Of a DNA stretch of 64,000 nt, positions 2,600 through 20,226 are shown in pieces (position 1 is the stretch's first letter; every line of letters starts with the position of its first letter). The notes under the pieces are model-generated. The model ran no database searches. It worked only from the letters and a program-made list of their open reading frames with translations, and was not told the origin of the DNA. Position numbers and translations under genes: made by a program. Origin of the DNA: an uncultured cyanobacterium (GTDB lineage Bacteria > Cyanobacteriota > Cyanobacteriia > Cyanobacteriales > Nostocaceae); assembly GCA_963706595.1 (NCBI GenBank), contig OY970166.1, positions 4,064,001 to 4,128,000 on the forward strand. Reading direction: 5' to 3'.

Positions 2600-3121
2600 A
2601 TGACATTAGATGTATTCACCAAGGTAGTTTCTCAAGCTGACTCCAGAGGCGAGTTTTTAAGCAACGAGCAATTAGACGCTTTAACCAACGTTGTTAAAGA
2701 AGGCAACAAGCGCTTAGATGTTGTTAACCGCATCACCAGCAATCAATCAGCTATTGTTACCAACGCGGCTCGTTCTTTGTTTGAAGAACAACCCCAATTG
2801 ATTGCTCCTGGTGGAAACGCTTACACAAACCGTCGTATGGCTGCTTGTTTGCGCGACATGGAAATCATCTTGCGTTACGTTACCTACGCTATCTTGGCTG
2901 GTGATGCTAGTGTTCTAGATGATCGCTGCTTAAACGGCTTGCGCGAAACCTACCAAGCTCTAGGAACTCCTGGATCTTCTGTAGCTGTCGGCGTTCAAAA
3001 AATGAAAGACGCTGCTGTTGGCCTAGCTAACGATCCTAACGGCATCACCAAGGGTGATTGCAGCAATTTGATGTCTGAAGTAGCTAGCTACTTTGATCGT
3101 GCTGCTGCTGCTGTTGCTTAA
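2600..3121 (+). CDS. cpcB: C-phycocyanin beta subunit
   Basis: [19 protein letters not shown]...[10 protein letters not shown]...GDCS; AGGAG RBS precedes ATG 2600, so the ORF-track start at 2471 is too long. Confidence 0.98.
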
Positions 3122-3199
3122 TATCAATAACAAAGTCCAACACCTAAATATTTAGGTAATCAAACCAAAAATTTACGAAATACCAAGGAGATTTTAGAA

Positions 3200-3691
3200 A
3201 TGGTTAAAACACCAATTACCGAAGCGATCGCATCTGCTGATACCCAAGGACGTTTTTTAGGCAACACCGAACTGCAAGCAGTTAACGGTCGTTATGTACG
3301 TGCTATTGCCAGCATGGAAGCTGCTCGTGCTTTGACCTCCAACGCTCAAAAGTTGATTGATGGTGCAACCCAAGCGGTTTACCAAAAATTCCCATACACC
3401 ACCCAAACACCAGGCCCTCAGTTTGCTGCTGACAGCCGTGGTAAGTCCAAGTGCGCTCGTGACGTTGGTCACTACCTACGCATCGTTACCTACAGCTTAG
3501 TTGCTGGTGGTACAGGTCCTTTGGATGAGTTCTTGATTGCTGGCTTGTCTGAAATCAACAGCTCCTTTGATTTGTCTCCTAGCTGGTACGTTGAAGCTAT
3601 CAAGTACATGAAAGCCAATCATGGTTTGAGTGGACAAGCTGCTAACGAAGCCAACACCTACTTTGACTACGCTATCAACGCTCTTAGCTAA
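3200..3691 (+). CDS. cpcA: C-phycocyanin alpha subunit
   Basis: [20 protein letters not shown]...[13 protein letters not shown]...YAINALS. Confidence 0.98.
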
Positions 3692-3699
3692 ATAGTATC

Positions 3700-3824
3700 T
3701 TGCCCGGATCAGGATGCAAGTGTTGGATGGAGTTAGTCAACCCTTTGGGGTTCACCAGTCGCTCGTTTTGTCAAACAAAAAGACCGTTCTGGCTCATCTA
3801 GCAGTTGAATCTCGCTCCGGGCAA
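3700..3824 (+). terminator. Long stem-loop (attenuator or mRNA stabiliser) between cpcA and cpcC
   Basis: Inverted repeat TTGCCCGGA (3700) / TCCGGGCAA (ends 3824) followed by a T-rich tract. Confidence 0.6.
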
Positions 3825-3913
3825 ACTTTTATTTAGCAGAGAAATAAAAAAGGTTTGAGTAAAGTCAGCACTCGGTACAAATAGCCGAAATGCAAATAAA
3901 TAGGTGAAAAATC

Positions 3914-4774
3914 ATGGCAATTACAACAGCAGCATCTAGGCTAGGAACAGAGCCTTTTAGCGATGCACGTCGAGTTGAACTGCGCCCCAACGCCAGCAAA
4001 GATGAAGCAGAGGTTGTAATCCGCGCTGCTTATCGGCAAATTTTGGGTAACGACTATTTGATGGCATCGGAACGTCTAGTCAGCGCCGAATCCCTCCTGC
4101 GAGATGGCAATTTATCAGTGCGGGAGTTTGTCCGCAGTATTGCGAAATCAGAACTTTACAAAAACAAGTTTTTTTACAACAGTTTTCAAACTCGGTTGAT
4201 TGAACTCAACTACAAGCATCTTTTGGGACGCGCACCCTACGATGAAGCGGAAGTTGTTTACCACTTAGATTTGTACCAGAACAAAGGGTACGACGCGGAA
4301 ATTGATTCTTATATTGATTCTCCAGAGTACCAAAATAACTTCGGTGACAATATCGTTCCATATTATCGTGGTTTTGATAACCAACCAGGGCAAAAAACTG
4401 TCGGCTTTACGCGGATGTTCCGGTTATACAGGGGTTATGCCAATAGCGATCGCACCCAAGTAGAAGGTACTAAATCCCGTTTAGCGCAGGATTTAGCAAG
4501 TAATAAATCTTCTTCCATTGTGGGACCATCAGGAAGCAATGATAACTGGAATTATCGTGCTTCATCAGATGTCGCGCCCAAGAAGAATTTAGGAAATGCT
4601 GTGGGTGTAGGCGATCGCGTGTACCGCATCGAAGTTACAGCAATCCGTGGTTCCGGCTATCCCAGTATCAGACGGAGTAGCACAGCATTTATCGTACCTT
4701 ACGAGCGACTTTCTGACAAGATCCAGCAAATTCATAAGCAGGGTGGCAAAATCGTCAGCATCACGTCAGCATAA
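3914..4774 (+). CDS. cpcC: Phycocyanin rod linker polypeptide
   Basis: [14 protein letters not shown] linker domain ([17 protein letters not shown]) and C-terminal CpcD-like domain. Confidence 0.96.
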
Positions 4775-9460: not shown

Positions 9461-10715
9461 ATGCTAAAAGAACTTCATTTAAAGTCTGTTGGACCTGCTT
9501 CTCAATTTGATGTTGAATTTGCTGATAGACTCAACATTTTTACTGGGGATAATGGACTAGGTAAAAGTTTTTTACTTGAAGTTGCTTGGTGGGTACTCAC
9601 GGGAAATTGGGTAGACCAACCCGCTTATCCCCAAAGAAATATAGATGAATTACCAAAAATTATATCCAAAATTATTACTCTAGATGATGATCAAGGAATA
9701 AATTATTCAAGTAAATTTAATTTTAATAAACAGAAATGGCAAGATTTCCAATATGGTGTTCCCTTATTAAAAGGGGTAATTATTTTTGTTCGCGTTGATG
9801 GAAGTTTTTCTGTTTTTGACCCTGCTCGCAACGATGAAGATTCGTATAATTTTACCCCGGATACACTTTGGAATGGCTTAAAATCAAAAGGTAAAGTTGT
9901 TTGTAATGGTCTAATTCAAGATTGGGTAACATGGCAAAATCAACCACAAAAAACGCCATTTCAACTTTTATCCGATGTCATTAAACAACTTGCACCTCAT
10001 CCTGATGAATGGATAGAAATAGGAGAACCAACGCGAGTATCTGTAGAAGATGTGCGCGACATTCCCACAATTAATCTTCCTTACGGTAATATTCCCATTA
10101 CCCAAGCATCAGCAGGGATGAAGCGTATTCTGGGACTTGCCTATTTGTTGGTATGGGCTTGGTACGAACACGAAAAAGCTTCGGAACTCCGGAGACAAGA
10201 ACCAATGAATCAAATAGTTTTACTAATTGATGAAGTTGAATCTCACCTACATCCACGCTGGCAAAGAGTTATATTACCATCTATTTTATCTGTGCCTAAA
10301 TGAGTTCCAGTCAAATATGAAAGTACAAGTTTTAGCTACAACTCATTCGCCCTTGGTACTTGCTTCCTTAGAACCAATTTTTGATGAAGAACAAGACAAA
10401 TTATTTTTATTTGAACTGGAAAACGAAAAAGTTTCCTTGGATGAAATGTCATGGGTTAAACAAGGAGATACAGTTGGATGGTTAACATCAGAAATATTTG
10501 GACTCAAACAAGCTCGTTCTCAAGAAGCAGAAACAGCGATTGAAGCCGCAGAAGCATGGATGCGCTATGATGATATGAATAATTTTCCAGAACACTTAAG
10601 AAGCCAGCCACAAATTCATCAGGAATTGCAAAAACTTTTACCCGGACATGATCCTTTTTGGCCTCGTTGGATAGTAACAGCAGAAAAAAGAAATGCTGGC
10701 TCATCCGAGGTATAG
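9461..10715 (+). pseudogene. ABC/AAA_21-type ATPase (Septu PtuA-like) split by a +1 frameshift near 10295
   Basis: Walker A GDNGLGKS, signature-like ASAGMKR and Walker B LLIDEVESHLHP in ORF 9461-10303; H-loop ATTHSP in ORF 10227-10715; removing one C from GTGCCTAAAT joins the frames. Confidence 0.8.
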
Positions 10716-10720
10716 TAAAT

Positions 10721-11287
10721 ATGTTAAAGTTTAATCCTCCACCAGAACCACCAGATTTTGATGCCAAAGCACGGCAGCTAGGTAATAATTGGTTAGTCAA
10801 AAATACAGATTCTAAAAAAAGACCAAGAGATTATTGGTCAAAATTTAAAATAGATTTAGCCGATGGTTTTGGTAGTCTTTGTGGTTATAGTGCCATGTTT
10901 GAACCTGTTGGCACTGTAGACCATTACCTCTGTTGTCAAAATCATCGGCATTTGGCTTACGAATGGAGTAATTATCGTTTTGCTTCTGCTTGGATAAATA
11001 GTAGCAAAGGCACTGTTGATGATCAAGTGCTTGACCCATTTCTGGTCGAGGATGATTGGTTTGAAATTTTGTTACCTTCCCTCCAGTTAGTCCTAACTGA
11101 TGCAATTCCACCACAGGAAAGGTCAAGAGCCGAATTCACTCTGCAACGACTGCATCTGCGGGATGATGAGCGAGTCATCCGTCAACGTCAACAATGGTAT
11201 CAGCTTTATCTTAATGGTGAAATTACTCTCACAGGATTAGAAGGGAAAGCTCCTCTCATTGCGCGTGCAATTAGAAAACAGCAGTAA
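10721..11287 (+). CDS. HNH-type endonuclease (PtuB-like)
   Basis: CGYS...GTVDHY...LAYEWSNYRFA...N..KG pattern; ATG 10721 lies 5 nt after the ATPase stop. Confidence 0.75.
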   Translation: MLKFNPPPEPPDFDAKARQLGNNWLVKNTDSKKRPRDYWSKFKIDLADGFGSLCGYSAMFEPVGTVDHYLCCQNHRHLAYEWSNYRFASAWINSSKGTVDDQVLDPFLVEDDWFEILLPSLQLVLTDAIPPQERSRAEFTLQRLHLRDDERVIRQRQQWYQLYLNGEITLTGLEGKAPLIARAIRKQQ

Positions 11288-13568: not shown

Positions 13569-14549
13569 TTAAATCTGTGGTGATTGGAGTGTTGTTAGCA
13601 GTAGCAGTGACCACGGTACTTTTATATCTGGGATGAGGGATGAGTATTTTCTCAGTGCGGGTAAGGCTGCTGGGATCAGAAATTTTAGGGAGCGTAGGGA
13701 TGCTGGAATATTACCTTCTTGATCTACAATTCCATATTGTTGGGCTAGTTCGGCGACAATCTGCACTTTTCCTGTGCGGCGCATGACATTTGGATCACCA
13801 GTCAGTGCTGCAATTACTCGCCCTGTGAATAAGGGAGTTTCCCAATTATAACGCTCGGCAAATACTGAGTTTTGTCCGTCAGTAATGTTTTCTGCTGCCA
13901 TGTCATCTGCTAAACGGGAGATTTGCTCAGTACCCACGATTCCCGGCCACAGGGACACAGAAGCCACGTTATGAGGCTTGAGTTCTACGGACATATCAGC
14001 CGCTAATCGGTCACAGGCGGCTTTACCAGCACCGTAGGCGGCACTGAAAATTCGGGACATCCCACCCCATGAGGAAATGGTACAAATTAATCCCTGTTGA
14101 CGTTTGAGCATAATTCTGGCAGCATAAATACTGGCAACGTAATGGCTACGCAAACCAACGTTGTTAGTTGCATCCCAAAGGCTGGGTTCACACTCCCAAA
14201 AAGTCTTTTTTTGATTTTCTCTTAAGGCTTGGACTCCTGAGAAGACATTATTAACTAATAAATCTAGTTGTCCATTTTGCTCGTCTTCGATACGTTCAAA
14301 GAGCGATCGCACTTGTTCATCGTTGCTATGATCTACCTGGACGGGAATACATATACCACCGGCTTCTTCAACTGCGGCTTGGGTATCAGTGAGATTTCCT
14401 GACATTTCAGCACTCGGATCAGAATTATCTAGGGTACGTCCGGTAATATACACAGTTGCACCTGCTGCACCCAGACCAATGGCAATTCCTTTGCCAATAC
14501 CCCGCGTAGCACCTGTGACTAAAGTTACTTTTCCTTTAAGGTTTTGCAT
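13569..14549 (-). CDS. Short-chain dehydrogenase/reductase (DHRS1-like)
   Basis: TGATRGIGKG Rossmann motif, LLVNN, catalytic YGAGK. Confidence 0.92.
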   Translation of the reverse strand: MQNLKGKVTLVTGATRGIGKGIAIGLGAAGATVYITGRTLDNSDPSAEMSGNLTDTQAAVEEAGGICIPVQVDHSNDEQVRSLFERIEDEQNGQLDLLVNNVFSGVQALRENQKKTFWECEPSLWDATNNVGLRSHYVASIYAARIMLKRQQGLICTISSWGGMSRIFSAAYGAGKAACDRLAADMSVELKPHNVASVSLWPGIVGTEQISRLADDMAAENITDGQNSVFAERYNWETPLFTGRVIAALTGDPNVMRRTGKVQIVAELAQQYGIVDQEGNIPASLRSLKFLIPAALPALRKYSSLIPDIKVPWSLLLLTTLQSPQI

Positions 14550-16020
14550 CTAATATTTTATACTCAAGTTCATGAATAGCGATCGCTTCATCTTTACCTC
14601 TTAATTTTACGAATTTATCGACTAATCGCAGTGAAAATAATTCTGGTTCAGATAAACTTAAAATTACTGAATCAGTTACCAAAATTCCACAGTGATGGTA
14701 TTTAGTTATACTCTCAACCCGTGAGGCGATATTTACTGCGTCACCGACTACTGTAGAGTCAATGCGACAAGTAAATCCTACCGTACCCATGACCACCTCA
14801 CCACGATGAATGCCAATCCCGATGGCAATTTTTGGTAAACCGTGTTGCGATCGCGCATAATTAAACTGATCAAGAGACTGTTGCATTAAAATTGCGGCTT
14901 TAAGTGCGCCATCAGTGGCTTGATCATCAAACAGCGCCATGATCGCATCACCTATATATTTATCAATAAAGCCACCAGATTCATCAATGGCTTTTCCCAT
15001 ACAAGCTAAATAGTCATTTAAAAACAAAAAAATTTCCATTGGTGTCATAGTTTCTGACATGGAAGTATAATCGCGAATATCACAGAATAAAATTGTCATT
15101 TTCCGCGTCGCAGCCATACCTACTTGAATGTTTTCTATTCCTTGGGGAGCAATGACTGAAACAAATTTATCTGGGACAAATTTCTCAAATGATTCTAATG
15201 TCTTCTGCAATTTACTAAATGATATCTGCAATGCACGTGACATTTCATTGACGGAAATTGCTAATGCACTAATTTCATCTACACGATGATAAATATCGGC
15301 GCGATGTTGCAAATCTCCATTGGCAATTTTAGCAACGCTCATCTGTAACCGCCGCACTGGATAACTCAATTGATTCGCTAAAATGTATGCAAATACTAAA
15401 CCAAAGTTCAGTCCTACAAAACCTACCATCAAAGCTTGGTTAACTGCGTTACTAATAGCAATATCTACCCTTCTTAAAGATATACCTATGCGTAAAGTAC
15501 CGAGCTTTTGTTGACTTAATCCCAAAATATTTGAAGCCACTTCAATCACGCGTTCACCACGTTTAGCTCGTAGCTTTTCTCCAAAGTAAATATCTCTGAG
15601 CAGAAATGTTTCTGATACACGAGTCCGATTCTTAGAAGATGAACTTAGGGCATGATTGGTGACACTTAAAGGTACTAAATCAGGAATATATTGATCTAGA
15701 AATTCTTGAGGAGAACCTGCAACGATTTGATTACCTAAACGGGTATCCGATACAAAAACATAGACAACATCTTTATTTTCTTGCATCAAAAGATGTAAGT
15801 TTATGCGAATTTGACTCCAATTTTCTTCCGATAATTCGTTAGAATATGTAGAACTTAAAACTTTAGAGGTAATTTTAGCATCATTTAACTTTTCTTGCCG
15901 GTAGAGAGTGCTGTCAGTTTTTGCCCAAACCGTAACTATAGCTGTAATCAAACCCAGAATCAGCAAGGTAGTTGAAGTCATAATCTGGGTGCGAATAGAA
16001 CGAAAAGTTAAGATTTTCAT
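14536..16020 (-). CDS. Membrane-bound class III adenylate/guanylate cyclase with periplasmic sensor and HAMP domain
   Basis: Two TM helices flanking an extracytoplasmic region, HAMP (PVRRL...DEISALA..VNEM), catalytic ILFCDIRDYT, DKYIGDAIMA, GDAVNIASRVE; ATG 16020 overlaps the upstream TGA. Confidence 0.92.
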   Translation of the reverse strand: MKILTFRSIRTQIMTSTTLLILGLITAIVTVWAKTDSTLYRQEKLNDAKITSKVLSSTYSNELSEENWSQIRINLHLLMQENKDVVYVFVSDTRLGNQIVAGSPQEFLDQYIPDLVPLSVTNHALSSSSKNRTRVSETFLLRDIYFGEKLRAKRGERVIEVASNILGLSQQKLGTLRIGISLRRVDIAISNAVNQALMVGFVGLNFGLVFAYILANQLSYPVRRLQMSVAKIANGDLQHRADIYHRVDEISALAISVNEMSRALQISFSKLQKTLESFEKFVPDKFVSVIAPQGIENIQVGMAATRKMTILFCDIRDYTSMSETMTPMEIFLFLNDYLACMGKAIDESGGFIDKYIGDAIMALFDDQATDGALKAAILMQQSLDQFNYARSQHGLPKIAIGIGIHRGEVVMGTVGFTCRIDSTVVGDAVNIASRVESITKYHHCGILVTDSVILSLSEPELFSLRLVDKFVKLRGKDEAIAIHELEYKILDAKP

Positions 16021-17084
16021 AATTGTGGAGTTAACTCTTCGACAAAAGTCACCCATCGCTGCTTCTTAGTTCTGCTCGGACAATCATCACCAAAGGCCAA
16101 AGTCACTGGACCCCCCATTTGCGCGGTAATTAATTGTTTTTCTTCACCCCACCTAGTAGCTAAGATAATATCACATTTGAGTATATCCTCTGTTACTAAT
16201 TCGATGGGTTCAGCATTTCTGCGGTAAACTGCTGCTTTACCACGCACGACAACAGAACTAAGAGTATTTAATTGGACTCCAGCTAAGGAGAGAACATCTC
16301 GTAGTCTCACACCGTGTAATTTCACTTGACCACTCGGCCACCACACCCGATAACCAACATTTTGCGTCAAGCTAACTTGGGGTAATTGATCTAAATCTGC
16401 TAAATTGAGTTCACTGTCCCCTATACTCACTTTGGCTGTTTCTGTGCCAAAAATGACATGAGTCACATAAAATGCCCACATCCCCTCATCATAGTTTTTT
16501 CTAATTTCTGGATACTGGGTATAGGGAAAAATTAAATAAATCGGTCCACCTTGCTCACGCGGAATTGGTTGACCATCCTTGGCAACTGCTAAAATAATTG
16601 GGTACTTGAGTAAATCTTTGATGTTGATAGTTACTTGATAGGCATCATAGCAGACAAAAGTTATTTCCGTGATTTCTCCTTGAGCCGCAAAATTTTTTAT
16701 GAGTGAATTTACAGATATACCTGTAAATTTAAAGACTTTTTTGGGATTGACAATGTTATTGCCATCAACTGTATTAATATTGACTGTAGCTAAATCCTGC
16801 AACTGTGACCAATCTAATGTTTCCGTTTTTCCTGTTGCTGTCTGACCTTGTATAACTAAATTCCATTGCTGCTGCTGGTTATTTTGAGCTTTTTCTGTCA
16901 CAATTTCAGCATTGCGATCGCTTGCTTCTTTACGCCATACTTCCAGTTGTGCATCTGTCGGCTTTTCTGTACAACCTCCCAAACAGACCATAGCTATCCC
17001 CAAAGATATTAAAGCCAAGTTTTTCCAGACATTCCATACAACCACGTTCACAACTATTACTGGAGACAGTTGACATAATGGCAC
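16017..17084 (-). CDS. Lipoprotein with two molybdopterin-oxidoreductase-like (sulfite-oxidase/PruR-like) domains
   Basis: Lipobox-like CLGGC; FTGISV...YDAY...IILAVAKDGQPIPREQGGPIYLIFPY; second degenerate copy LHGVRLRDVL...IILATRWG...MGGPVTLAF; start codon uncertain. Confidence 0.7.
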   Translation of the reverse strand: MPLCQLSPVIVVNVVVWNVWKNLALISLGIAMVCLGGCTEKPTDAQLEVWRKEASDRNAEIVTEKAQNNQQQQWNLVIQGQTATGKTETLDWSQLQDLATVNINTVDGNNIVNPKKVFKFTGISVNSLIKNFAAQGEITEITFVCYDAYQVTINIKDLLKYPIILAVAKDGQPIPREQGGPIYLIFPYTQYPEIRKNYDEGMWAFYVTHVIFGTETAKVSIGDSELNLADLDQLPQVSLTQNVGYRVWWPSGQVKLHGVRLRDVLSLAGVQLNTLSSVVVRGKAAVYRRNAEPIELVTEDILKCDIILATRWGEEKQLITAQMGGPVTLAFGDDCPSRTKKQRWVTFVEELTPQL

Positions 17085-17253: not shown

Positions 17254-20226
17254 ATGGTATTACAAGTACAAACCAGCACCTACGAAGCTAAAACTCAAGA
17301 AATTGCCAAACAGCTGCTCTCAGCAACCCAAGAAAATCGTTCATTTTTAGGTTCCTTGCGTGATCAGATGCGCTGGGATGATAAATTATTAGCTTGGGCG
17401 ATGAGTAATCCTGGTTTACGGGTGCAATTATTTCGGTTCATCGACACATTACCCGCTTTACAAAATAAACCAGAAATTGCCGCACATTTACAAGAATATT
17501 TAGGAGAAGAGTCTGTAGAGTTACCCTCAGCTTTAAAGGGAATGCTCAACTTTGCCCAACCTGATTCTATGCCGGGACAGGTGGCGGCGACAACCGTTTC
17601 TACAGCCGTGGAAACTTTGGCACATAAATATATTTCTGGGGAAAATATTAAACAAGTCATTAAAACGGTTGAAAGACTGCGAAAAGATAAAATGGCTTTC
17701 ACCATTGACTTACTTGGTGAAGCAGTAATTACTGAAACTGAGGCGCAGTCTTATCTAGAACGTTATCTGGAATTAATGCAGCAATTGGTGGAAGCATCAA
17801 AAAATTGGTCTGTAATTCCAGCTATTGATCAAGCAGATGGTGAATCAATACCACAAGTTCAGGTTTCTGTCAAGCTAACGGCGTTTTATTCCCAATTTGA
17901 CCCTTTAGATGCTCAGGGTAGTGAAGAGAAAGTTAGCGATCGCATCCGCACTCTTTTACGTCGGGCGAAAGAATTAGGCGCATCTGTGCATTTTGACATG
18001 GAACAGTACGCTTACAAAGATTTAACTCTGAATATTCTGCAAAAGCTACTCCTAGAAGATGAATTTCGCCAACGTACAGATATTGGCGTGACAATCCAAG
18101 CATATCTGCGTGATAGCGAAGAGGATGCTAAAAACCTGATTTCTTGGTTACAACAGCGCGGTTATCCTCTCACAGTCCGGTTGGTGAAAGGTGCATATTG
18201 GGATCAGGAAACCATTAAAGCGGAACAAAAGCACTGGAAACAGCCAGTTTATAACGATAAAGCGGCTACAGATGCCAATTTTGAAGTTATTACTCAGCTA
18301 TTGTTAGAAAATCACCAATATGTGTATGCTGCTATTGGTAGTCATAATGTGCGATCGCAAGCTCGTGCAATTGCTATAGCCCAAAGTTTAAATGTCCCTC
18401 GTCGTCACTTTGAAATGCAAGTGTTGTATGGGATGGGGGATAAGTTGGCGAAAGCTTTGGTAGACAAGGGTTATCGAGTTCGGGTTTATTGTCCTTATGG
18501 TGAGTTGTTACCGGGGATGGCTTATCTAATTCGGCGGTTGTTAGAAAATACCGCTAATAGTTCCTTTTTACGGCAAAATCTAGAAAATCGACCAATTGAG
18601 GAATTACTCGCGCCACCAATTCCAGCCTCCCCCTCGCTTGCGGGGGGGAATGAGGGGGGGTTCCTCGGTGTGGCGGATACAGATTATTCCGAAGAGGAAG
18701 CAACAATGAAGTCTGCTGAAGCTTTTAAATTGGTTCGTCAACAATTGGGTAGGACTTATTTACCTTTGGTGAATGGGGAGTATGTGAATACTGCGGAGTT
18801 TGTTGATTCTCTCAATCCTTCTAATTTTAGTGAGGTGGTTGGTAAGGTTGGTTTGCTGAGTGTGGAACAGGCGGAAGAGGCGATGCGGGCGGCTAAGGCG
18901 GCTTTTCCTGCTTGGAAGAAAACGCCTGTGAAGCAACGCGCTGGGGTTCTGCGGAAGGCGGCTGATTTGATGTCAGCACGTCGGGCGGAACTTGCGGCTT
19001 GGATTGTTTTGGAGGTGGGGAAACCTGTTAAGGAAGCAGATGGGGAGGTTTCTGAGGCGATAGATTTTTGTCTGTATTATGCTGAGGAAATGGAACGGCT
19101 GGATGCAGGTGTAATCTATGACGTAGCTGGGGAAACGAATCGTTATATTTACCAAGCGAGAGGAATTGCTGTGGTGATTTCTCCTTGGAATTTTCCGTTA
19201 GCGATCGCCTGCGGAATGACAGTCGCAGCTTTGGTTGCAGGTAATTGTACTTTACTCAAACCTGCGGAAACGTCCTCTGTAATTACTGCAAAACTCACAG
19301 AAATTTTAATTGAGGCGGGAATACCTAAAGGTGTATTTCAATACGTCCCCGGCAAGGGTTCCGAAGTTGGGGCTTACTTGGTAAATCATGCAGATACTCA
19401 CATTATTGCTTTTACTGGTTCTCAGGAAGTCGGTTGTCGCATTTACGCCGAAGCCGCAACGCTGAAACCTGGACAAAAGCATCTGAAGCGGGTAATTGCG
19501 GAAATGGGTGGGAAAAATGCGATTATTGTCGATGAAAGTGCAGATTTAGACCAAGCTGTAGTGGGAGTTGTACAATCAGCCTTTGGTTACAGTGGGCAAA
19601 AATGTTCTGCCTGTTCGCGGGTAATTGTGCTGTCACCGGTATATGATGCTTTTGTGCGGCGGTTAGTAGAGGCGACAAAATCTTTAAATATTGGCGCAGC
19701 TGAGTTACCGAGTACCCAAGTTGGTCCAGTGATTGATGCTAAGGCACGCGATCGCATCCTAGAATATATTGAGAAGGGTAAAACCGAAGCACAAGTAGCG
19801 CTGGAATTAACAGCACCAGCACAGGGGTATTATATCGGTCCAGTGATATTTAGTGAAGTTCCAGCCGATGCTACAATTGCCCAGCAAGAAATATTTGGTC
19901 CAGTGTTAGCTGTAACCAGAGTCAAAGATTTTGCAGAAGCTTTAGCAGTAGCTAATGGGACTAACTATGCTTTAACTGGGGGGCTTTATTCTAGAACGCC
20001 TTCCCACATTCAACAAGCACAGACGGATTTTGAAGTCGGGAATGTGTATATTAACCGCAATATTACAGGTGCGATTGTGGCTAGACAACCTTTTGGCGGT
20101 TTTAAGCTTTCTGGTGTGGGTTCTAAAGCTGGAGGTCCTGATTATCTGTTGCAATTCTTAGAACCTCGGACGGTTACGGAAAATATTCAACGCCAAGGTT
20201 TTGCACCTATTGAAGGCGCGGAATAA
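17254..20226 (+). CDS. putA: Bifunctional proline dehydrogenase / P5C dehydrogenase
   Basis: VRLVKGAYWD, YLIRRLLENTAN, aldehyde-dehydrogenase motifs ISPWNFP, EMGGKN, GQKCSAC, EIFGPV. Confidence 0.96.
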   Translation: MVLQVQTSTYEAKTQEIAKQLLSATQENRSFLGSLRDQMRWDDKLLAWAMSNPGLRVQLFRFIDTLPALQNKPEIAAHLQEYLGEESVELPSALKGMLNFAQPDSMPGQVAATTVSTAVETLAHKYISGENIKQVIKTVERLRKDKMAFTIDLLGEAVITETEAQSYLERYLELMQQLVEASKNWSVIPAIDQADGESIPQVQVSVKLTAFYSQFDPLDAQGSEEKVSDRIRTLLRRAKELGASVHFDMEQYAYKDLTLNILQKLLLEDEFRQRTDIGVTIQAYLRDSEEDAKNLISWLQQRGYPLTVRLVKGAYWDQETIKAEQKHWKQPVYNDKAATDANFEVITQLLLENHQYVYAAIGSHNVRSQARAIAIAQSLNVPRRHFEMQVLYGMGDKLAKALVDKGYRVRVYCPYGELLPGMAYLIRRLLENTANSSFLRQNLENRPIEELLAPPIPASPSLAGGNEGGFLGVADTDYSEEEATMKSAEAFKLVRQQLGRTYLPLVNGEYVNTAEFVDSLNPSNFSEVVGKVGLLSVEQAEEAMRAAKAAFPAWKKTPVKQRAGVLRKAADLMSARRAELAAWIVLEVGKPVKEADGEVSEAIDFCLYYAEEMERLDAGVIYDVAGETNRYIYQARGIAVVISPWNFPLAIACGMTVAALVAGNCTLLKPAETSSVITAKLTEILIEAGIPKGVFQYVPGKGSEVGAYLVNHADTHIIAFTGSQEVGCRIYAEAATLKPGQKHLKRVIAEMGGKNAIIVDESADLDQAVVGVVQSAFGYSGQKCSACSRVIVLSPVYDAFVRRLVEATKSLNIGAAELPSTQVGPVIDAKARDRILEYIEKGKTEAQVALELTAPAQGYYIGPVIFSEVPADATIAQQEIFGPVLAVTRVKDFAEALAVANGTNYALTGGLYSRTPSHIQQAQTDFEVGNVYINRNITGAIVARQPFGGFKLSGVGSKAGGPDYLLQFLEPRTVTENIQRQGFAPIEGAE

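Follow-up and report, generated by a model that had tools for sequence, protein, structure and literature searches.

Pterin signalling through PruR is described, in the parts of PMC11194511 and PMC13259868 drawn on here, only for Proteobacteria and with cyclic di-GMP or kinase outputs. As PruR references we used Atu3496 of Agrobacterium tumefaciens, the structures 7kos, 7kou, 7rkb, 7kp2 and 7kom of the PDB and these two papers. According to sections of PMC11194511, Y104 and W160 of PruR sandwich the pterin ring and N102 hydrogen-bonds to it, Y104 is common to PruR and YedY-type enzymes, and the sensor of the partner protein DcpA is a predicted four-helix bundle; a portion of PMC13259868 reports that in some PruR-like groups Asp takes the place of Asn102 and Phe that of Tyr104. 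The present analysis concerns three genes in a window of 64,000 nucleotides from an uncultured cyanobacterium of the Nostocaceae (assembly GCA_963706595.1, contig OY970166.1, positions 4,064,001 to 4,128,000), which an initial annotation had put forward as a cyanobacterial analogue of PruR-DcpA: a PruR-like lipoprotein with tandem domains, a membrane cyclase with cyclic AMP (cAMP) or cyclic GMP (cGMP) output, and a short-chain dehydrogenase (SDR) as counterpart of the pteridine reductase PruA. The tandem receptor and its pairing with the cyclase were borne out and a contact between the two is predicted, whereas cGMP as output and the SDR as PruA were not upheld.

All three open reading frames (ORFs) lie on the minus strand (Table 1), and their order and both proposed overlaps were verified. 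The TGA of the lipoprotein gene overlaps the ATG of the cyclase gene (494 amino acids) in the sequence ATGA at 16020-16017, an arrangement seen again in 38 of the 74 loci having both parts whole; the linkage and co-occurrence counts given here include kin genomes that are not independent. The ATG of the SDR gene, at 14549, lies 14 bases inside the end of the cyclase gene (14536-14549), an overlap that is a local feature, being present in just 6 of 80 genome loci. Counted from its first GTG the lipoprotein has 355 amino acids. The GTG at 17045 is its likely start, relatives starting at that position, and leaves 24 codons before Cys38, a predicted signal of normal length for a lipoprotein. Relatives at 81–88% identity carry the name Nodularia.

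The lipoprotein was matched twice by the Pfam family Oxidored_molyb (PF00174), weakly in the second stretch, and the AlphaFold2 model (predicted local distance difference test, pLDDT, 85.6) contained a helix at residues 44–68 and two compact domains. Profile comparison of the two domains with hhalign (probability 94.5, E 7.9e-8) indicated that they are homologous; both have the sulfite-oxidase (SUOX)-type fold that had been proposed for them, domain 1 by its fold match to PruR and domain 2 through its profile similarity to domain 1. The Cys that ligates molybdenum (Mo), whose absence before the FTG motif had been noted at the outset, was found in neither domain in the hairpin preceding the F-x-G or L-x-G motif (0 of 75 aligned homologues), and Cys145 was variable (27 of 75). 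The lipobox Cys was kept in 74 of the 75 rows, and helix residues A54 and N58 were likewise conserved in 74. A lipobox-like site could be located in 105 of 119 proteins, and a simple pattern detected no twin-arginine motif in the signal regions of these 105; the lipoprotein scored far below the NCBIfam cut-offs for MsrP and SoxC. Matches in the ESM Atlas were limited to the lipoprotein family's own cluster. We consider the protein likely to be a non-catalytic, lipid-anchored receptor subunit.

PruR chains were the top four matches of solved structure in profile searches, with E values from 4.5e-18 (7kos) to 4.8e-11, the first Mo enzyme following at 1.5e-3, and the lipoprotein as a single sequence also matched 7kos (E 3.8e-10). 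Foldseek placed PruR at ranks 1–7, at 20–28% identity, with Mo enzymes behind, and a VIA fold search gave PruR Z scores of 18.7 (7rkb) and 18.5 with a root-mean-square deviation of 2.4 Å over 136–137 aligned residues. D147, Y149 and W203 of domain 1 align with N102, Y104 and W160 of PruR, and across the 75 rows these pocket positions held D in 64 and N in 11, Y in 69 and F in 6, and W in all 75, in agreement with the PruR-like character first assigned to the protein. The pocket residues fit pterin binding without proving it, because domain 1 lacks W70, the tryptophan of the PW motif in PruR, and YedY-type enzymes also have Y104. Domain 2 is more diverged, sequence searches returning weak matches to sulfite oxidase (E 0.012) and PruR (E 0.73–1.4); Lys283 stands in place of the N-x-Y motif and the pocket Trp alone is retained. 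Its invariant residues are W249, which sits at the place of the PruR PW motif, K283, W344 and the pair Cys304/Cys335 (75 of 75), likely a disulfide and missing from roughly one quarter of the 39 distant representatives. Domain 2 probably serves as an altered second site or as a structural partner braced by a disulfide.

The cyclase gave HAMP and Guanylate_cyc domain matches, with two hydrophobic stretches flanking its outer domain. The model of this domain (pLDDT 86) folds as a single Cache/PAS-like sensor, with VIA matches to DctB (Z 14.9), WalK (14.7) and CitA (13.6), and of 75 members 33 matched dCache_1 and 15 sCache_3_2, all weakly. Class IIIb cyclases are characterised by two metal-binding Asp, a Lys and Thr substrate pair and an Asn/Arg transition-state pair. 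D314, K354, D358, T423, N430, R434 and K476 showed no variation in any of 46 rows; from general knowledge of class III enzymes we take D314 and D358 to bind metal, K354 and T423 to specify adenine and N430 and R434 to form the transition-state pair. Judged by its residues, the catalytic set is intact and of the ATP-type class IIIb. The protein is 72% identical over 491 amino acids to CyaA of Anabaena cylindrica (Swiss-Prot P43524, CYAA_ANACY); P43524 shares a 90% cluster with the copy of A. cylindrica UHCC 0172, whose gene comes immediately after a lipoprotein gene (locus L017). Nothing substantive differs between the two proteins, which sequence comparison identifies as orthologues. Since K354/T423 and the identity to the A. 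cylindrica adenylate cyclase point to ATP as substrate, cAMP is the most likely output; cGMP, the other output first considered, is rejected on the same grounds. We know of no partner or input signal for A. cylindrica CyaA, which reportedly complemented an Escherichia coli cya mutant and is said to occur in thylakoid fractions, in the 1995 work of Katayama, Wada and Ohmori. Should CyaA indeed sit in thylakoids, the receptor could lie on the side of the lumen instead of the periplasm.

Contact between the two proteins was assessed by co-folding the lipoprotein in its mature form and the outer domain of the cyclase, each given as a 75-row alignment, in three runs and with three controls. The score was 0.73 (runs 0.77, 0.73 and 0.71) against 0.24 for the best control. 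Of 157 solved complexes 116 attain this mark, as do 2 of 215 mismatched pairs, figures that are only a rough guide when own alignments are supplied. The runs shared at least 54% of their contacts, with partner pLDDT of at least 75. All 25 lowest-error contact pairs involve helix residues 47–61, joined to residues 110–121 and 141 of the Cache domain, the lowest-error Cache residues including the invariant P113, V116 and L141. The residues conserved in the Cache domain (N67-W68, Y111-x-P113-x-x-V116 and L141) all lie in the predicted interface, and in the best run the rim of the domain 1 pocket (146–149, 175–180 and 205–206) also rests on the Cache domain. Co-folding supports a contact between lipoprotein and Cache domain, short of showing binding, and we know of no solved complex of such a kind. 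That the two proteins form a physical receptor-cyclase pair we regard as highly probable.

Relatives of the lipoprotein occur in other architectures. A protein of 640 amino acids from one Logan contig (P0159) combines a Ser/Thr kinase domain, a hydrophobic stretch and both SUOX-fold domains of the lipoprotein family, and this fusion, in which the relative makes up the outer portion of a membrane kinase, fits a sensor role of the lipoprotein module. Another (P0169, 337 amino acids) has the first half of the lipoprotein in frame with the cyclase catalytic domain, either an internal deletion or a mis-assembly. Three secreted or surface proteins (P0168, P0177 and P0208) contain four to six SUOX-fold repeats, one of them with S-layer domains, and the repeats of P0168 carry a DPW motif like the PW of PruR; the three would form a wider set of repeat PruR-like binders.

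The cyclase outer domain followed directly after the lipoprotein in 77 of 80 genome loci; one exception ends 52 bases downstream and two (L067 and L079) have no cyclase within 6 kb. Of 301 genomes sampled from the cyanobacterial phylum, 22 have the whole lipoprotein and precisely these 22 have the Cache domain; none has one whole partner alone. The two genes lie within 700 bases in 19 of these genomes, about 3 kb apart in two (the one inspected has a helicase-like ORF inserted) and on another contig in one. A 23rd genome has the first part of the lipoprotein alone at the same locus, with no cyclase there and no Cache match elsewhere. At locus L133 (genome G086, 2762-4345) the lipoprotein is cut after about 100 residues and the cyclase is gone, leaving the putA-side and HD-like neighbours, a case of joint loss of the pair.

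A first scan of metagenomes gave no match; the later set comprised 48 loci, seven of which end within 140 bases. The same Cache-type gene was next in 39 of the remaining 41, including 23 of 23 contigs with 65–76% GC, a count that includes some near-duplicates. From these 23 we picked 14 with a whole cyclase, avoiding obvious duplicates. Their cyclases, at 43–53% identity to gene 2, retain the catalytic and interface residues, while the lipobox Cys and the pocket positions of domain 1 were kept in 14 of 14 and the Mo-ligating Cys of domain 1 in none of 14. Among 64 matches, the taxon-named relatives of the GC-rich type were three Kofleriaceae and one Myxococcales record only. As far as sequence can place them, the pair extends outside cyanobacteria and the GC-rich contigs are Myxococcota-like by their named relatives. 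The conserved module consists of two genes, lipoprotein and cyclase, and not of three; the pairing first suggested is thus well conserved, whereas the SDR adjoins it in just the 6 of 80 loci mentioned above.

The pair shares with PruR-DcpA and PruR-DTB of Proteobacteria an exported SUOX-fold protein lacking the Mo-ligating Cys and encoded directly upstream of a membrane signalling enzyme with two transmembrane (TM) segments, the N/D-x-Y...W ring-contact positions and a proposed contact outside the cytoplasm. It differs in having two fold copies and a docking helix (about 320 amino acids in the mature form against about 146 in PruR, or about 340 with signal against about 170 for single-domain PruR), a near-invariant lipobox Cys where the Cys19 of PruR is dispensable, and no PW tryptophan in domain 1. 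The sensor of the enzyme is a Cache/PAS-like alpha-beta domain instead of a predicted four-helix bundle, the output domain a class III adenylyl cyclase instead of GGDEF-EAL or histidine kinase, and the hosts are Cyanobacteria and Myxococcota-like contigs. The WX7E motif of DcpA is absent: none of 75 members has Glu eight residues past the conserved W32, the bare pattern occurs in 13 of 75 through other, unconserved Trp, and Glu is found at +4 from W32 in 42 of 46. Since the partner lacks WX7E and the sensor of DcpA is a predicted four-helix bundle, it belongs to another sensor family, and the locus is a parallel design that works like PruR-DcpA but falls outside that family in size, PW motif, partner sensor and output. 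More distant parallels are pairs in which an exported binding protein, encoded alongside a membrane enzyme, acts on the outer domain of that enzyme to control it. LuxP-LuxQ is one such combination of binding protein and Cache sensor; NspS-MbaA and TorT-TorS are others, discussed in part of PMC11194511. These three employ periplasmic solute-binding-protein folds and other outputs, in contrast to the degenerate molybdoenzyme fold found here. Both domains share that fold with MsrP/YedY and sulfite oxidase, from which the lipoprotein differs by the missing Mo-ligating Cys, a signal that is not of Tat type and the duplication of a small domain.

By analogy with PruR, we propose that the lipoprotein acts as a lipid-anchored receptor on the Cache domain and that a pterin in domain 1 would retune cAMP output. 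The lipoprotein would stay docked by its N-terminal helix, mainly at the Y111–V116 loop; a pterin-type small molecule would bind the PruR-like cleft of domain 1; occupancy would alter the contact and so cyclase activity, in either direction; and TM2 and the HAMP domain would relay the signal to the catalytic dimer. The SDR would have no part. Taken as a whole we give this model an even chance, because the physical pair is highly probable and a pterin ligand, granted the pair, only somewhat favoured. That the pair is a second, independently wired pterin sensor, in which a tandem PruR-fold lipoprotein has acquired a docking helix of its own for a Cache domain and which couples a pool of exported or lumenal pterins, or the redox state of that pool, to cAMP, is put forward more tentatively.

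Several observations weigh against a pterin receptor. Mo-enzyme domains come close behind PruR in the VIA search (SoxC, Z 16.2), identity of domain 1 to PruR is low (about 28%), the residue at the place of Asn102 is mostly Asp, and where PruR has its PW motif Pro108 occurs in 47 of 75 rows with no conserved Trp after it. The surest predicted contacts come from the helix and not from the pocket, and low-error contacts form the majority in a single run (96 of 97, against 41 of 100 and 43 of 101). The lipoprotein lacks a downstream cyclase at metagenome locus L118 as well as at L067 and L079, and the genes are separated in 3 of the 22 genomes holding both. No conserved pterin-pathway gene appeared in the neighbouring-ORF clusters of the loci and no RxG-type SDR in a motif scan of the organism's own genome; the Cache domain could, moreover, bind a ligand itself.

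An alternative is the same receptor-cyclase complex responding to a non-pterin signal, either another flat heterocycle (a flavin breakdown product, a purine or a folate-type compound) or, with the Cache domain binding the ligand, a ligand-free lipoprotein that is regulatory or senses redox through Cys304-Cys335. The linkage and docking evidence fits this equally well, as do the missing W70 and low PruR identity, the Cys pair in all 75 rows with a redoxin gene nearby in 16 of 80 loci, and the presence of the pair in GC-rich non-phototrophs. The retention of all three ring-contact positions in the 75 cyanobacterial rows and the 14 GC-rich loci, the closest solved relatives being pterin binders, and the loss of the Cys pair from distant representatives argue the other way, and we rate a non-pterin signal as doubtful, if a real possibility. 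The PF00174 match, the database name 'molybdopterin-dependent oxidoreductase' and fold matches to SoxC, SorA and MsrP could suggest instead an atypical molybdoenzyme or carrier of the molybdenum cofactor (Moco) whose turnover the cyclase reports. Exported Moco enzymes use Tat, whereas the signal here is of the Sec/lipoprotein type without twin arginines; with the Mo-ligating Cys missing throughout, Cys145 in a minority of rows and scores below the MsrP/SoxC cut-offs, this is most improbable. It is also very unlikely that the two genes are mere neighbours under common regulation, with products that make no contact: kinship among the genomes, the nature of co-folding scores as model confidence and the few unlinked loci would allow it, but linkage in two distant groups with cyclases 43–53% identical, a co-folding result that passes its controls and invariant Cache residues in the predicted interface oppose it.

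A three-gene module in which the SDR is a PruA-like pteridine reductase making the ligand, as first envisaged, draws on the co-orientation of the third gene, its 14-base overlap with the cyclase stop and a catalytic YX3K motif (YGAGK at 172), which is common to all classical SDRs. The best solved match of this protein was human DHRS1 (PDB 2qq5, E 9e-70), it fell below the NCBIfam cut-off of PRK08303, and neither by motif nor by best match is it of the PruA/FolM/PTR1 type. Its TGATRGIG motif (TGxxxGxG) has Gly where pteridine reductases have Arg, the motif TGX3RXG being given in part of PMC13259868; this mismatch alone is not decisive, because the same source, in the part available, reports Gly in some PruA-like clusters. 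The SDR flanks the pair in four Nodularia and two other Nostocales loci. It was present in 40 of the 301 sampled genomes, 34 of which lack the lipoprotein-cyclase pair, and at E<=1e-60 in 6 of the 22 pair-holding genomes, on another contig in five of those six. PruA need not adjoin pruR, yet nothing links this SDR to the module by position or co-distribution, and we rejected it as PruA; a role in making the ligand is very improbable.

Table 1. Features of the lipoprotein-cyclase locus and the adjoining SDR gene, in window coordinates.
Feature	Position	Strand	Basis and remarks
Lipoprotein gene	16017..17084	-	Signal peptide and lipobox, N-terminal helix, two SUOX/PruR-fold domains without Mo-ligating Cys
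Lipobox-like LGGC, ending at Cys38, the predicted lipid anchor	16971..16982	-	Cys conservation; lipidation presumed
N-terminal helix, residues 44-68, outside the PruR-matching region	16881..16955	-	Structure model; main predicted docking element on the cyclase
Lipoprotein domain 1, residues 72-214, PruR-like	16443..16871	-	Profile and fold match to PruR
Lipoprotein domain 2, residues 215-355, diverged second fold copy	16020..16442	-	Profile comparison; weak sequence matches
Membrane adenylyl cyclase: TM1, single Cache-type domain, TM2, HAMP, class III catalytic domain	14536..16020	-	Domain matches, CyaA orthology
Extracytoplasmic single Cache/PAS-like (PDC) domain, about residues 34-185	15466..15921	-	Model, fold matches, weak Cache matches
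Class IIIb catalytic domain	14584..15111	-	Invariant residues D314, D358, K354, T423, N430, R434, K476
DHRS1-like short-chain dehydrogenase	13569..14549	-	Solved-structure match, TGATRGIG motif; outside the conserved module

The most frequent clusters of neighbouring ORFs in the 80 genome loci were putA (41), an HD-like gene (19) and a redoxin (16). The putA gene of the window (17254-20226, plus strand) lies divergently upstream of the lipoprotein gene, with which it shares a short intergenic region; matches were found in 43 of the 80 loci, mostly Nostocales, and the adjacency is probably lineage synteny. The redoxin, an AhpC/TSA-Redoxin gene, occurs near the lipoprotein in non-heterocystous cyanobacteria (for example L052:4618-5271). 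A conserved gene for a SAM-dependent methyltransferase is oriented towards the cyclase at 14 of the 28 GC-rich loci and at no cyanobacterial locus (for example, on the minus strand, L083:7988-8764, L085:9234-10001 and L088:7593-8369); it is of interest in that the A. tumefaciens pterin is O-methylated, and may be plain synteny. One GC-rich locus (L104:3723-4956, minus strand) has a PTPS/QueD-family gene and a Vut_1 transporter divergent from the lipoprotein, a single case in which the former is more likely queuosine-related. The organism's own genome has a gene with tandem PTPS domains far from the locus, which is common and uninformative. A promoter and terminator scan stayed at chance level (12 versus 12.8 and 3 versus 3.0, respectively). 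Elsewhere in the window (9461-11287, plus strand) an ATPase-like gene is split over overlapping ORFs (9461-10303 and 10227-10715) and followed by an HNH-like ORF, presumably, by eye, resembling a Septu-type defence pair.

No description of the lipoprotein-cyclase pair, and no pterin-cAMP link through it, was found in the literature searched, most subscription papers lying beyond the reach of that search. The main text of PMC11194511 contains no mention of cyanobacteria, adenylate/adenylyl or cAMP, and its three supplements none of Nostoc, Anabaena, cyanobacteria, adenylate or Myxococc. Cyanobacterial pteridine glycosides are described in parts of PMC13259868 and PMC3546692 as abundant and of unclear roles and receptors, and portions of PMC3546692, PMC4284465 and PMC13259868 tie both pterins and cAMP to motility. 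The pair bears on both the role of the pteridine glycosides and the input of CyaA, with residues named on both sides of the predicted interface. Even with a non-pterin ligand, it would provide a membrane adenylyl cyclase with a dedicated receptor subunit and exemplify the reuse of a dead molybdoenzyme fold with a second sensor family. If the proposed pterin receptor is correct, filamentous cyanobacteria would gain a receptor for their own abundant pteridines and CyaA its missing input, and Myxococcota could use their version of the pair to read the same molecules.

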